Shown here: piece by piece, positions 922-56,729 of the stretch
Layout: every line of letters starts with the position of its first letter
Numbering within the stretch: position 1 is the stretch's first letter
DNA from: Naegleria gruberi
Lineage: Eukaryota
DNA length: 64,000 bases
Reading direction: 5' to 3' (one strand)
NCBI GenBank assembly: GCA_000004985.1
Contig: GG738846.1
Notes under the pieces: generated by a model
The model's database searches: none
The model's input: the letters and a program-made list of their open reading frames with translations, nothing else
What the model was told of the DNA's origin: nothing
Translations under genes and position numbers: made by a program

Positions 922-3900
922 ATGAAGAAAATTATTGCCAATGGAAATGAAAGAAAATTATTGTTGATACATCAAAAATTTGCATCATCAACACTCCGAA
1001 ATTATTCAAAATCATCATCATCACCATCAGCTATTTTTGAAAAACCAATACAATTATTTAATATTGATAAAAGTAATACTCAACTTGCACATTTATTAAT
1101 TAATGATAAGAATAATTTTGGATATAGTATTAATGTTAAATTAGATAAGAGTCCTATTAATTTTCTAACTTATCATCATTTCAATAATTTAATTGTTGAG
1201 AAATTAAATTCATGTTTTAATTATTCACCTTATATTTATCCGAGTATATTTTCTATTGATACTCATCAAGAGGTACAAACATTTCAATTCACAACAAATA
1301 ATCAAAGACAATACAAACAATTAATAGATATATTTAATAATCAATTATTCTTTCCTAATTGGAATTCTAGATATATTGAGGAATTAGTTCTAAATTCATT
1401 AGAAGGTTTGAATGTGTTGAATCATACAGATGGACAAGCAAGATTTTCTAAATCTCTCATCAGTCATCTCTATGACAACACAATACCAAGCTATGAGGAA
1501 TGTGTGAATATTTTGAAAAATACCAATTCGTACAATTTGAGACAAGATTTCGAGTCAAAATATAATCCTAGTAATTCTCTCTTTATTTCTTATGGAGATA
1601 GTGCAGAGATGGTTGTAAAATCTTTGGAAAGTCTTCCAAAACAAACTAATAGTAGCAGTAGAAATGAATTAATTGTGGAGTCATTGAAAGATACCAGTAC
1701 ATTTGAATTTGTAGAACATGTTCCATTCGAGAATAATCTCCCAGAGAATGCCCAATCAAGAATTGCAATTGCATACAAGCTTGATTGTGATATTACAGTA
1801 AGTATCATTGAAAAACTACTACTAGTTTTCACACAACACCAATTAATTATAGAACCAACATGACTATATTCTCTTATCTATTCTGGCAAGATGTCTCCAA
1901 GATACTTATCCATTCGAGTTGGGTAACTTCTCATTGTCTCCACTCCAAATCAGTGGTATTAATGCTTCACACAATCAATGCTCGTTCATAATTGGTGTTG
2001 AAGGTGTTACTAATAATGATTTACCAATTGTAAAGAACAAGTTATTGAGAATGATGGAGAATATCAATACTAGATCTGCATCTCACTACTTGAATCAAAT
2101 TGAAATGGAATATTCTACACTCTTCAATTCAACATTGCGTATTCATGAAATTTTACTTCACTCTTGGGTTTCTGAGCAGAATATTGGTGATTCCCTCTCC
2201 ACTGGTAGTTCAAACTCTCTCATTCAATTGGCGAATATTAGAAAGGAAATTGATGAATGTGGTGGAATTGAAAGGATACTTTCTCAACTTGTTCAAAAGT
2301 ATTTTTCCACTAATAAGAATTATGTACTTCTCACTCAGACAGGAAACAAGAATGTTCATCTCCCTACCATGTCCAAGATTAGTGTGAATCAAAACTTGAG
2401 TTTTGCCTCTAATATTAATGAGAGCTATGATATTGATACTGATAGCTGTATTTCTGAATCATTTATTAGTAATTCTGTAGAGTCATACTTGAATGGTAGA
2501 TTTTTATTCAATATTCAGGAATCGAATGGAGATCTTATTGATATTTCTCTTGTAAAGTATGACAATGTTTTCGTTACAAAGGATGAAAATAGACTCCACG
2601 ACATTATTTATTATTCATCAATAGCAAAACTCATAACTCAACTTGGAGCTCGTGATGCGTCTAGAGAAGAAATGGATGAATTCAAAGAAAAGTACTTCCC
2701 AAGAGGAATACAAACTAGTGTCAAGATTTTACACGACAAATTTGATCCAAATTCTGTAAAGTGTGGTATTGTGCTGAGAACGCAGGTTATTAGAAAGAAT
2801 TTATACAAGGCACTGGATGTAATGGACGCCATGTTATCTGACTCTGAATTGAAAGATATGCCACCTCATTTATTAAATGATGAGCTTATAAAGCATATCA
2901 TTGATGAGGTAAATCAAGAGATATCAGATCAAATTGATATTATTGGGTTGGCTAGATTTTCCTCAGAATCCAAAACTTCTCCAATATCGGTAAGTAGTAT
3001 TTATATTATATCTATTGCTAAAACAATTAAAGAAATTAGAGGATGTTGCTGGTGGAACAACCCATTTAGCATTTTTGGAAGAAGCCAAATTAAAATCCCT
3101 TAAATCATTTAAGAATTATATTTCTCAATTCTATAGACAATTGACAACACGTTTTGGATATAAATTAATGCTTACTGCAAGTTCGAAACATAGGGACATG
3201 GTTTGTCAAGTTGCAAAAGATTTTATGGAATCCAATTCAGACATGTTACAGGAAGAAATACCAGAAAATAACAAATTTGGAAAGGTAATAGAAGCCTCCA
3301 AAGAAAAGAACAGATACATTACCATTCCACCAAATACTATTTTAGAAGGTTCAAGAATAATATGTAGAGGTGGTAAAAGCGTTCCACTAACTGATGACAA
3401 AGCACCTCATTTCTTCCTACTCGCGCAAATATTTAATGAAAAGCTTTTCAAGAATTCAGAGAGTGATTGCCGAGCTCATCAGTCAATTAATGGTTCATTC
3501 TCAATTATTGGAATTACTCGTGAGGACATCAAAATGTTCCTTTATGATCTTGATGAGCAAGTGAGATCATTTGTTGATTTTGCCATTGATGAGATTTCCA
3601 TTGAAGAATTTAATCGTTTAAAGATGAATGTGATGAGAGAATTGGGAGATTCTGTTACAATACCAGCACACGAGAGAGCTACCAAGCTATTCAATTATGG
3701 AATATCCTATGATGACTATTCAAAGTTCAAATCAACACTCTTAAAGAGTACCATTGAGGAATTAAAATCAGCTGCAAATTCCCAATTTGGTTTCCAACAA
3801 GAACAAGGATTTGTGTTAACTGTGATGGGTACTGAGCTTGATACTCCAGATGAAGTTAAAGTCATGTCAAAGGATAGAAATGGTTCTTGGGAAATTGTTG

Positions 3901-19681: not shown

Positions 19682-21064
19682 ATGAATTTTAATCTATTTT
19701 TCTCATTAGCTATTATAAAAAGTTGTCTAATATTAATTAATGTAACAATTAAAAAAATGAATCTGAGAAGGATTTCATCTTCACTGTTATTGTTTAAAAA
19801 AACAAAGGAATCATCGTCATCATCATTGCGGTGTGGATATCATCAATGTAGTGCAAATAATAATATTGGAGTAAATTCCCAAATGATGAATAGTGTTACA
19901 ACATCAATATTTCCGAATAATAAGAAGTTTAAACAAAATAATAATAATAATAATACAGAGAGCATACGTAATTTAATTCTAAAACATGCTCGATTGGGTC
20001 AAGTGAAACAAGTATTGGAATTACTCTCTCGTATTACATTACCAAAAAATTCACCGAATGACAAGATTAAAGAAATTGAATTGGAAAAGGAAAATATAAT
20101 CCATACACTCATGTTGGCCTATGCTAAGAAGGGCTCACTTCACAAGACTGAAATTCTCTTTAGAAAATTACAAAATCCAACACTTAAATGTTATACAATA
20201 TTGTTGGGAGTATATGCAGAAAAGGGATTAATAGATAAGGTTAAACAATTGTTTTCCAAAATTGAAAAACCAGATCAAGCATGTTATGTTGTATTAATGA
20301 ATACTTACTCGAAATTGGGCATGTTTGACAAGATTCAAAACATTTATTCCAATATTTATTACAAGTTGTTGAATTCCAAATCCTTGGAAGGCAACAATGA
20401 AACCAAGAGTGGAAATGAATTACTAGTAGATTTGACCCAAGTTATCAAGAGTAATTATAAGGAAGAATGCAAGGAATTTAAATATTATAAGGATATATTT
20501 ATAGTTGTTTCGGGATTCAAAATGTATTACCACTTGAAAAAGAAGGAATATTTACTAGTTGAAGACACATTCGCTAAAGCTAGGGAATTTATTAATAACG
20601 ATAACATTAATATTCTGAATGTTTACCTACAATCACTAATTCATAGAAACACTAGTATAGAACAAATTGAACACTTTATTAAGAATTCTATTCGAAATCC
20701 TGACCATGTTACATATCATTTATTAATGGTTTACTATCACAAATTGAAAAATTATGACAAGGTAGAAAAGTTATACAAGGCAGTAACTCAACTCGACGAT
20801 ATTGATACACAAAAGAGAAATTATTTTGATGCCATGATTATGACAATGTTTTATGAAAGAGAAATGTTTGATAAGGTTGAAAAGATTTTCAGACAAATCA
20901 AATCTCCAGATTACAAATGTTATTTGATTTTGATGAGATGTTACCTCAAACAAATGGATTCAGATAAAATGATTCAACTCTTCAAGGAAATGCCAAACGA
21001 ATTGGTTAATGACAATCTGGTTACAGAGATGATGCAAATGACTCTCCATGCAAATAGGAAATAA
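19682..21064 (+). CDS. Pentatricopeptide/TPR-like repeat protein (likely organellar RNA metabolism), 460 aa.
   Basis: There are at least 6 degenerate ~35-aa helical-hairpin repeats (LMLAYAKKGSLHKTEILFRKL; YTILLGVYAEKGLIDKVKQLFSKI; YVVLMNTYSKLGMFDKIQNIYS; YLILMRCYLKQMDSDKMIQLFKEM). The N-terminus is basic and presequence-like. Confidence 0.55.
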   Translation: MNFNLFFSLAIIKSCLILINVTIKKMNLRRISSSLLLFKKTKESSSSSLRCGYHQCSANNNIGVNSQMMNSVTTSIFPNNKKFKQNNNNNNTESIRNLILKHARLGQVKQVLELLSRITLPKNSPNDKIKEIELEKENIIHTLMLAYAKKGSLHKTEILFRKLQNPTLKCYTILLGVYAEKGLIDKVKQLFSKIEKPDQACYVVLMNTYSKLGMFDKIQNIYSNIYYKLLNSKSLEGNNETKSGNELLVDLTQVIKSNYKEECKEFKYYKDIFIVVSGFKMYYHLKKKEYLLVEDTFAKAREFINNDNINILNVYLQSLIHRNTSIEQIEHFIKNSIRNPDHVTYHLLMVYYHKLKNYDKVEKLYKAVTQLDDIDTQKRNYFDAMIMTMFYEREMFDKVEKIFRQIKSPDYKCYLILMRCYLKQMDSDKMIQLFKEMPNELVNDNLVTEMMQMTLHANRK

Positions 21065-54769: not shown

Positions 54770-56528
54770 TTATTGAGAAATAGAACCCTTTTCAAATTGA
54801 TAGAGTGATTCTCTTTCGTGTGGCAAGAGGGTTGGGACAGTGGAGAAGTAATAATTGAATGGATAGTACAAGAGCAAAACAACGTCACTACAATATAAAT
54901 CGGCAAATCTTTGAATTTGAGTACTAAAGTATGATTCTCTTGTACCTGATCTGAATGTGCTTCCAAAGTATGAATTAAAGTGGGCATTGAGTTCTTCTTG
55001 GGCATTGGCAATTTGTTGCTTGATTGGGAATTCTTCAACATCTTTGTGACCATTGATAGGATAGGATGAATCAAGATTCTTAAAGCTTTCAGCTCTGATA
55101 TATTCCAATGTATGAACAGTGTTCCACATTTCACTTGATCTCTTTGTCATCCAATTTTTAGTTTCTTCTTCAACTTCTCTGACAATGAGGAGGGTTCTCC
55201 ATAGACATCTATTTTGTTTGGTAACAATGATATCGTGGAAAATATTGTCTCCCACGTATAAAACCTCAGAACCTTTAGTCTTGGTGAATTTCTTGAATAA
55301 ACCAAAAGAACCTCCACAATAAACGCTTCCTTTTTTGAACCCCTTAACTGCTGACAATTTCAAACTTCCAGTCGATTGATCCACTTCTCTCAAAGTTGAA
55401 CCTTCCTTAAAGAATTTTGGTTTTTGACCATTAGTAATAATGATATCAAAGAAATCAGTCCATCTTTCATAACCTTCAATAGATTTATCCAACAAGAAGG
55501 CCATAACTGCATTAGTATAAAAATATTCTGAATTGGTTAAGAGGAAAATCTTCTTTCCAGCCTTTCTCATTCTATCAAACAAGAGTGGAAGCCTATCATC
55601 CTTCTTGATATATTTAGCTAAATCAGACATGACTTCATTCTTTAAGCTATTATCACTATGAACACCATGGAAACATTCTCTGATATCATCAAAGAGAGAC
55701 CAATAAGAAAGTCTAGCTTCTTCACTACTGGTTTGTTCAGTACTATCAGAATCATTGCTGGTAGGACTTCCAGTTTCACTCTTAGCAAGGAAATTGGTTT
55801 GTTCAAAGTAATCAACAAGAGATGCATAGAGAGAGGCTTCTGGAATTCCGAAAAGGGTATCATAACAGAAATATCTCTTACCCATTTCTTCTTCATTGTG
55901 AATCAAGTGATCTGGATAGAATCGTTCATATTCGGATTTTTTAACAATCTTTTTACCATGAACACATTGCAAGATGAATCCATAGTGGTCAACCTTTAAA
56001 ATGTTGCCATATCTTTTATCTAGGAATGTACCTCTGACTGCAAATGATGGATCATAGGTAATATTGAGAACTTCGGATGGGTAACCTTTAGAATCAACAA
56101 GTCTTTGAAGGATCATTTTAGTACACATTGATTCAAAGACTGGAGAAATGTAATTCTATTATTGTTATTATTATTATTATATTAATATTGTAGATCAATT
56201 TTTGTTGATTAATTTGTTGTTATTTTGGTGGTGATGAATTTAGTGTGAAATTTATGAAAATGCATTCCCATTTAAATACTTACAGCACTTTAAAATGTTT
56301 AAATTGTTGTGTGAGATAAAATAATAATACTTACATTGTATAATCCATATCAAAGCCATAATATTCAATATTATCCAAATTAACAGTACGATTTACAAAA
56401 ATACGATGTTCAACTGGTCTTCTGTACTTTTCTGGGAGTTCATAATCTATGGAGGAATCTAACTTCTTCAACTCGGAACTAGAGACTGGAAAAGAGATTG
56501 GCAATGGTGTTTTTGGTGTCTTTGGCAT
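54770..56528 (-). CDS. NT5C2: Cytosolic purine 5'-nucleotidase II (NT5C2-type HAD hydrolase), about 527 aa. Exons 56528..56335, micro-exon 56287..56284 (4 nt), 56155..54770. Introns 56334..56288 (47 nt) and 56283..56156 (128 nt).
   Basis: Exon 1 gives [32 protein letters not shown] (human: KYRREAYHRVFVNRSL...CFGFDMDYTLA). Direct splicing of the flanking exons is impossible in any phase. A 4-nt exon TGCT bounded by AAAG| and |GTAAGT yields [16 protein letters not shown]...QRLV (human DMDYTLAVYKSPEYES...ERLV). Later motifs [12 protein letters not shown] and [31 protein letters not shown] follow. Confidence 0.75.
56284..56287 (-). other. 4-nt micro-exon (TGCT on the coding strand) of the 5'-nucleotidase gene.
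   Basis: It is flanked by a 47-nt GTAAGT...TTTTAAAG intron upstream and a 128-nt GTAAGT intron downstream. The downstream intron is AG-free until its terminal AATAG. The micro-exon is required to keep the frame and restores the conserved I-A dipeptide. Confidence 0.6.
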
Positions 56529-56729
56529 GTTGTTAAAGAGAGAAAGTTGTTGAGTTATTTTTTTTTGATTGGAAAAACGATATTGGTAACCACAGTAATA
56601 ATAAGGCAAGGTTGTTGATGAGATGCTATAAATAAACTGTTAAAAAATTGTAATGATCATGTACATCTAAGATGTTGAACAAAAAAATTTCAAGATATTT
56701 GCTGGCGGAATGAAGCTTTTATTCTCAAC

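Follow-up and report, generated by a model that had tools for sequence, protein, structure and literature searches.

How is the reading frame of the cytosolic 5'-nucleotidase II (cN-II) gene on a 64-kb stretch of Naegleria DNA (the window) carried across the gap that opens directly behind its catalytic motif, when no single intron in that gap can restore it? An earlier note on this stretch had proposed that the two long open reading frames are joined through an exon of only four nucleotides, TGCT, which is flanked by two short introns; that the gene lies on the minus strand was left unstated. The evidence presented here indicates that the feature is a genuine, genus-wide, and presumably constitutive 4-nt coding micro-exon. 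The explanation as a whole, in which the cN-II gene would contain a constitutive TGCT micro-exon that originated in the stem lineage of Naegleria and whose flanking introns would be removed sequentially, is considered highly probable. All coordinates are those of the whole window.

The reading frame across the junction

Exon 1 ends with DMDYT in phase 2 at a GTAAGT donor (56335 / 56334-56329), as the earlier note had described, and its terminus reads GAT ATG GAT TAT ACA AT. The 47-nt intron, the four nucleotides TGCT, and the second GTAAGT were likewise found exactly where they had been placed (56334-56288, 56287-56284, and 56283-56278), and the second intron, said to be free of AG as far as AATAG, extends over 128 nt with no internal AG other than the one inside its donor. 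Joining the exons yields ACA ATT GCT AAT TAC, which encodes T-I-A-N-Y within a product of 527 amino acids. The predicted mRNA junction that includes the micro-exon is ...TATACAAT-TGCT-AATTACATT, with TTGCTAATTAC and GATTATACAATTGCTAATTACATTTC as longer diagnostic strings. The four nucleotides are bounded by an AG acceptor and a GT donor and have a viable intron on either side, which is the arrangement that defines an ultra-short coding micro-exon (<=15 nt).

The uniqueness of this solution was assessed by enumerating all single-intron joins with GT or GC donors and AG acceptors and all two-intron models within the gap. Each of the single-intron joins that are in frame and free of stop codons loses either DMDYT or, via an acceptor at 56104-56103, 18 conserved codons of exon 3. 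The gap of 179 nt contains four AG dinucleotides, two of which are inside donors, and the assertion that it offers no single phase-compatible acceptor was borne out, since the in-frame acceptor at 56104-56103 lies outside the gap. An upstream extension of exon 3 is impossible, because the in-frame triplet preceding it is TAG. Only two of the two-intron models restore the frame, namely the 4-nt exon with a GT donor and an exon of a single T, which would need a GC donor; no GT-AG solution other than the TGCT micro-exon leaves both conserved blocks in frame. Its inclusion is required for the frame and reproduces the conserved peptide, whereas skipping (junction string GATTATACAATAATTACATTTC) causes a frameshift and a stop at codon 79. 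Both strands of the window together contain the motif AG-N4-GTARGT only three times, and its rarity, together with its presence at the same site in four other Naegleria lineages, places the arrangement beyond chance.

Table 1. Features of the window cN-II gene and its junction region
Feature	Coordinates	Strand	Remarks
Exon 1	56335..56528	-	ATG at 56528-56526; 3' end ...GFDMDYT plus AT, phase 2
Intron 1	56288..56334	-	47 nt; donor GTAAGT at 56334-56329; terminus TTTTAAAG
Micro-exon TGCT	56284..56287	-	4 nt; third base of the Ile codon (AT+T) and Ala codon GCT
Intron 2	56156..56283	-	128 nt; donor GTAAGT at 56283-56278; terminus AATAG
9-mer GGAATGCAT in intron 2	56260..56268	-	15 nt after the donor; candidate intronic splicing enhancer
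Exon 3	54770..56155	-	AAT TAC ATT TCT CCA (NYISPVFES...) to the stop codon; rest of the PF05761 domain
Decoy in-frame acceptor AG within exon 3	56103..56104	-	outside the gap; joined to the donor at 56334 gives DMDYT-I-LVDSKG

The spliced product bears out the identification of the gene. Residues 43-514 match positions 1-459 of the 460 positions of the profile PF05761 (5' nucleotidase family; E 3.4e-152, 508 bits versus a gathering cutoff of 28.5), and structures of human cN-II (NT5C2; PDB 5opl, 2j2c), a member of the same family, match at E about 1e-107 to 2e-107. The alignment with human cN-II covers residues 23-514 of 527 and is gapless over the junction (human side gfdmdytLAvYksPeyES). These matches confirm the assignment of the window gene as a Naegleria cytosolic 5'-nucleotidase II of the HAD superfamily with three coding exons. 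DMDYT, encoded at the end of exon 1, represents HAD motif I, and the motifs ltNS, KPkFF, and GDniFhD (general forms (l)tNS, KP.FF, and GD.iF.D) align with atNS, KPlFF, and GDhiFgD of the human enzyme. DMDYT and the further motif residues are catalytic in HAD enzymes, where DxDxT provides the nucleophilic Asp and the acid/base Asp. The earlier note had gone further and claimed that the conserved DMDYT-LA motif is reproduced residue for residue; splicing does restore the motif, but the window protein has Ile where human cN-II has Leu. The likeness is in any case far from identity: related animal cN-II proteins are 39-42% identical, and the window protein differs from human cN-II by the absence of the acidic C-terminal tail and by an additional insert rich in Ser, Asp, and Thr (residues ~185-205).

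The closest proteins are those of other Naegleria, with 78% identity in N. lovaniensis (full length) and 83% in N. gruberi (exon 3), followed by 69% in Willaertia magna and 52% in Acrasis kona. A fragment that lacks genomic context (P0129) is 95% identical to the window protein over exon 3. The protein collection searched contained no annotated protein identical to the window nucleotidase.

Conservation in Naegleria and public gene models

Orthologous loci were fetched and the junction region was read in each of them, which resulted in five Naegleria lineages including the window (Table 2). The comparison with orthologous cN-II genes, which had been suggested as a check on the micro-exon, bore it out: the exon and both its splice sites are present in all five lineages, while the introns have diverged. 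The arrangement AG/TGCY/GTAAGT (slashes mark splice boundaries) occupies one and the same codon position in each lineage, and the donor of intron 2 is invariably GTAAGT. The only difference within the micro-exon is the synonymous change from GCT to GCC in the metagenomic Naegleria (TGCC), and the last dinucleotide of exon 1 varies among AT, CT, and GT, so that the codon completed by the micro-exon encodes Ile, Leu, or Val. The introns (41-82 nt for intron 1 and 42-128 nt for intron 2) differ up to threefold in length and are otherwise unalignable.

Table 2. Junction region of the cN-II gene in five Naegleria lineages
Lineage	Exon 1 end	Intron 1	Micro-exon	Intron 2	Exon 3 start
Window	ACA AT	47 nt, gtaagt...aaag	TGCT	128 nt, gtaagt...atag	AAT TAC
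N. gruberi (L002)	ACA CT	46 nt, gtaagt	TGCT	42 nt, gtaagt	AAT TAC
Naegleria sp., metagenomes (L003/L004)	ACC AT	41 nt, gtaggt	TGCC	45 nt, gtaagt	AAT TAC
N. lovaniensis (L001)	ACA GT	82 nt, gtaggt	TGCT	101 nt, gtaagt	AAT TAT
N. fowleri (L006)	ACC AT	51 nt, gtaggt	TGCT	116 nt, gtaagt	AAT TAC

The protein encoded by the N. gruberi locus is 100% identical to that of N. gruberi NEG-M over the aligned residues. Within the last 35 codons of exon 1, synonymous changes outnumber nonsynonymous changes in the comparison with both N. lovaniensis (12 vs 2) and N. fowleri (17 vs 3), indicating that exon 1 is under purifying selection. The overall pattern of conservation is that predicted for a translated, spliced 4-nt exon, and neither an assembly error nor a pseudogene nor chance would produce it. 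An assembly or sequencing error was also rejected because the same structure is present in five independent assemblies.

The micro-exon is implicit in the public gene models of two species. That of N. lovaniensis (XP_044551303; DMDYTVANY) spans 1800 nt but has a coding sequence of 1617 nt; the difference of 183 nt equals exactly the sum of the two introns (82 + 101 nt), which means that the model contains the 4-nt exon. The genome of N. lovaniensis was annotated using BRAKER1 with RNA-seq hints (PMC6125883), and a model from an RNA-seq-guided annotation provides indirect transcript support for the micro-exon. The N. gruberi model (XP_002674779; P0127, NAEGRDRAFT_70078) reads DMDYTLANY and includes the exon as well. 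The same model lacks 20 residues that the identical metagenomic contig (L002/P0002) encodes as a continuous open reading frame, and it begins with an unrelated N-terminus (MYSEAMKQNPIDTSTVINNGK...) instead of the conserved MP.TPKTP...ELPEK; both peculiarities look like model errors.

The situation is different in N. fowleri, whose model (XP_044561878 / KAF0977165; FDP41_003818) reads DMDYTM-LVESKG. Here, a single intron of 224 nt takes in TGCT and 53 nt of exon 3 (L006 ~3486-3709, VFQX01000035.1), and one Met stands for 20 conserved residues (IANYISPVYESMCTKLILQR) beside the catalytic motif; the junction predicted with the micro-exon is GACTACACCATTGCTAATTACATTTCTCC. The model also carries an N-terminal extension of 96 amino acids that is not found in the other Naegleria models. 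The contention that gene finders miss exons of this size thus holds for N. fowleri but not for N. gruberi and N. lovaniensis. The consequences are tangible: the window gene cannot be translated correctly without the four nucleotides, and the public protein of N. fowleri, a human pathogen, is wrong next to its catalytic motif because the micro-exon was missed. Gene calls on metagenome contigs begin at a Met inside exon 3. A protein search with the N-terminal 130 amino acids returned four matches, none of which spans the junction, and when metagenome contigs were scanned for the exon 1 terminus with its donor, only three matches turned up, all of them bacterial and due to chance. A full-text literature search found no paper on micro-exons in Naegleria and none for Discoba.

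Splicing of the micro-exon and competing explanations

The intronic sequence directly downstream of the micro-exon contains a conserved element. The 9-mer GGAATGCAT is identical in the window, the metagenomic lineage (L003/L004), N. lovaniensis, and N. fowleri, where it is located 6-17 nt downstream of the donor of intron 2. A 9-mer common to three lineages was obtained in only 1 of 20000 composition-preserving shuffles, and intron 1 shares no more than 5-mers among the lineages. The position of GGAATGCAT suggests that it is a putative intronic splicing enhancer for the micro-exon.

The alternative explanation that survives best concerns the same element. According to this explanation, which is compatible with a constitutive micro-exon rather than opposed to it, the exon would be alternatively included, and regulated skipping (56334 to 56156) would tune the level of the enzyme, with GGAAUGCAU as the regulatory site. 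The premature stop in the skipped form and the conserved element immediately behind the exon speak for such regulation, and the element comprises TGCATG (UGCAUG in the transcript) in N. lovaniensis and N. fowleri. UGCAUG is the metazoan RBFOX motif, which is found downstream of regulated micro-exons. However, the element does not read UGCAUG in the window, in the metagenomic lineage L003, or in N. gruberi, and regulated skipping is regarded as unlikely.

Considerably less probable is the use of a single intron from the donor at 56334 to the decoy acceptor at 56104-56103 for the major or only isoform. This would produce DMDYT-I-LVDSKG, with 18 residues lost (exon 1 joined to 56102; junction TATACAAT-ACTTGTTG, longer strings ACAATACTTGTTG and GATTATACAATACTTGTTGATTC). 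Although such an intron is of the canonical GT-AG type, in frame, and free of stop codons, and although the deposited N. fowleri protein XP_044561878 has exactly such a structure, the block it deletes is kept in all homologs, including human cN-II (YksPeyESlgfeltveRLV), and is an open reading frame in all five Naegleria lineages. The resulting intron of 232 nt would hold 53 nt of protein-like conserved sequence, and the conservation of AG/TGCY/GTAAGT and of the 5' end of exon 3 amid diverging introns would be left without an explanation.

Hardly credible is an exon reduced to the single nucleotide T, with a GC-AG intron behind it (T/GCTGTAAGT...; T/GCTGTA), which would yield DMDYT-I-NYISP and thereby omit Ala (cDNA strings ACAATTAATTAC and GATTATACAATTAATTACATTTC; it would be contradicted by ACAATTGCTAAT). 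It is the only other two-intron solution of canonical type that restores the frame, but GCTGTA is a poor GC donor, and all five species have a perfect GTAAGT located 3 nt further downstream. Moreover, no homolog examined lacks the Ala, and only with GCY as a codon is the change from TGCT to TGCC synonymous. Equally negligible is the possibility that exon 1 is a gene of its own or a dead remnant and that the protein starts at a Met in exon 3 (MCTKMILQ..., open reading frame 56128-54770), exactly as prokaryote-style callers have it on metagenome contigs (P0002, P0004, P0123, P0129), because that protein would be missing DMDYT, the motif that carries the nucleophile of the HAD fold, and because exon 1 aligns with the N-terminal region of human cN-II, shows synonymous changes far above nonsynonymous changes between species, and stops precisely at the conserved donor.

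Several other categories were considered and rejected. A recursive splice site in the sense of a zero-nucleotide ratchet does not apply, since four nucleotides separate AG from GT and are needed for the frame. Nor is the locus a stwintron, in which one of the splice signals of an outer intron is split by an inner intron and becomes whole again once the latter is spliced out. Both introns of the cN-II gene have a complete donor and acceptor of their own, and removal of the entire 179 nt shifts the frame. An origin from introners or transposons was dismissed because neither intron has a further copy in the window except for low-complexity matches of the AAT type. A scan of positions 55900-56700 against Rfam (E up to 1) gave no match, so that the introns contain no known RNA.

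If the micro-exon is constitutive, as favored here, TGCT would complete the Ile codon of exon 1 and add an Ala after the catalytic DMDYT. Introns 1 and 2 (47 and 128 nt) would each be recognized by intron definition. A stretch of 4 nt is too small for exon definition, and with the acceptor of intron 1 only 4 nt away from the donor of intron 2, two spliceosomes could probably not assemble together, so that the introns would have to be removed one by one, in a stepwise process that would resemble recursive splicing as conceived in the plant literature. Partly spliced transcripts would be recognizable by the strings ACAATTGCTGTAAGT (intron 1 removed first) or TTTTAAAGTGCTAATTAC (intron 2 removed first). 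The strong and invariant GTAAGT donor of intron 2, possibly together with GGAAUGCAU directly downstream, may prevent skipping of the micro-exon.

Several points weigh against this interpretation. The spliced junction was not found in a scan of JGI metagenome contigs, and there is no transcript-derived Naegleria protein among the entries of the protein collection. The connection between the RNA-seq-guided annotation of PMC6125883 and the deposited C9374 model of this gene is an assumption. The element has two mismatches to GGAATGCAT in N. gruberi (tGAATGaAT). Lastly, three elements of the interpretation are inferences: in what order the introns are removed, that GGAATGCAT acts as an enhancer, and that intron gain took place as opposed to loss.

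The flanking introns themselves look ordinary for the genome, judging from a neighboring gene whose 46-nt intron is of a similar make (GTAAGT...TTTAAAAG, 54198-54153, minus strand, phase 0) and from the median intron length of N. lovaniensis, whose genome is 77% coding, with introns in 47% of the genes and a median intron of 80 bp (PMC6125883). The 46-nt intron connects the open reading frames 54627-54172 and 54119-52494, which together make up a single TPR-repeat-like gene, the next one downstream of the nucleotidase. A TPR protein is encoded downstream also in N. lovaniensis (L001 4974-7126), and local synteny therefore looks conserved. The 3' part of intron 2 in the window (56156-56185, minus strand) is a low-complexity, AAT-rich simple repeat (aatataataataataataacaataatag), and similar AAT runs occur elsewhere in the window, e.g., near 19940, 34675, and 36560. 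The repeat may in part account for the greater length of intron 2 in the window gene (128 nt vs 42 nt in N. gruberi and 45 nt in the metagenomic Naegleria).

Origin of the micro-exon and comparison with known systems

The genera related to Naegleria differ in the number of introns at this site. In Willaertia magna, which is sister to Naegleria (PMC11702301), the junction reads ACC ATT GCT/gtaagt...atatag/GTA TAT; the bases TGCT form the end of the exon, and only the downstream intron is present. In Acrasis kona, the sequence ACT CTT GCC GAC TAT is uninterrupted, with neither of the two introns. There is also no intron after DMDYTxA in the amoebozoans Cavenderia fasciculata and Planoprotostelium fungivorum or in the Logan contig SRR23962323. 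In the cN-II genes of these last three, an intron ends 2 nt before GAT ATG GAT (...ag/tc or tt; L011 ~970, L012 ~845, L013 ~70), a shared position near the catalytic motif that is different from that in Naegleria.

The most parsimonious explanation dates intron 2 to the ancestor shared by Naegleria and Willaertia, or to an earlier time, in which case Acrasis would have lost it. On grounds of parsimony, intron 1 was most likely gained in the stem lineage of Naegleria, 4 nt upstream of the donor of the older intron 2, which would have cut off TGCT from the preceding exon. The alternative history, a precise loss of intron 1 alone in Willaertia, is less parsimonious, as it invokes one more event and would have to delete one intron while keeping another only 4 nt away. 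The 9-mer GGAATGCAT is absent from the single intron of Willaertia. A more far-reaching proposal, advanced here only tentatively, is that de novo intron gain created the 4-nt exon in the Naegleria stem from a precursor state like that of Willaertia and that a dedicated intronic element (GGAAUGCAU) has kept the exon in place while the sampled Naegleria lineages diverged and enforces or regulates its inclusion in an obligatorily sequential splicing process. If true, this would provide a tractable natural model of the birth and recognition of a micro-exon in a deep-branching eukaryote that is neither animal nor plant nor fungus. With no intron in Acrasis, one in Willaertia, and two in Naegleria, side by side, the locus offers an unusually clean view of micro-exon birth.

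Willaertia magna possesses two cN-II genes (JBEGDK010000089.1; L007 1-405 and 3001-4897), located on opposite strands about 2.6 kb apart and annotated as ABK040_009674 and ABK040_009672, with a single unrelated gene between them. The examined copy has an additional intron in the equivalent of Naegleria exon 1, directly before FVNRSVNL. The locus was reached through the isoform P0125; exact look-ups of the proteins of N. gruberi (P0127) and Willaertia (P0003) returned no locus.

The micro-exon belongs to a known kind, the ultra-short micro-exons best documented in plants, and is not categorically new, being implicit in two public models. What has been added is its demonstrated conservation, the precursor state in Willaertia, the conserved intronic element downstream, and the annotation error in N. 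fowleri. The case is well supported and overturns no current understanding, nor does it establish a new principle. A constitutive exon of 4 nt nevertheless ranks among the shortest known, and the presence of a micro-exon in Discoba implies that the machinery recognizing such exons exists beyond plants and animals.

Among vertebrates, micro-exons that have an intronic enhancer downstream include the 6-nt exon of cardiac troponin T and the neuronal micro-exons of 3-27 nt. Strong signals on either side and an intronic element shortly downstream of the 5' splice site are believed to secure their inclusion. GGAAUGCAU, as a candidate element, occupies an analogous place. Vertebrate micro-exons, however, are recognized by exon definition across long introns and are mostly alternative and tissue-regulated, whereas the introns in Naegleria are short and inclusion is presumably constitutive. 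A resemblance exists also to the ratchet points of recursive splicing, zero-length exons of the form AG/GTAAGT in Drosophila Ubx and long vertebrate genes, as far as they are covered by the citations in PMC4674806: the 3' splice site almost touches the 5' splice site, and splicing would proceed stepwise via an intermediate. Unlike at the ratchet points so described, four nucleotides remain in the mRNA, where they are needed for the frame, and there is no long intron to subdivide.

The closest parallel is found among the micro-exons of land plants (1-15 nt), such as the 1-nt exons of APC11 and VPS55 (PMC4674806, PMC8831610). They are constitutive internal coding exons of a few nucleotides with canonical splice sites, as presumably is the Naegleria exon; they, too, are conserved across entire clades and are often lost by automatic annotation, which results in truncated or altered proteins. 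Conserved GTRAGT donors are located beside the 1-nt exons of plants (PMC8831610), a pattern that is matched by the invariant GTAAGT in Naegleria. For plant exons of 1-9 nt, intron definition and a stepwise, recursive-like removal of the flanking introns have been proposed, and in the case of the 9-nt exon of potato invertase, the downstream intron is removed first (PMC4674806); sequential removal is also what is proposed for Naegleria. By contrast, the Naegleria exon resides in the gene-dense genome of a heterolobosean protist (Discoba), lies between very short introns (41-128 nt), and has a sister genus, Willaertia, that retains the one-intron precursor state.

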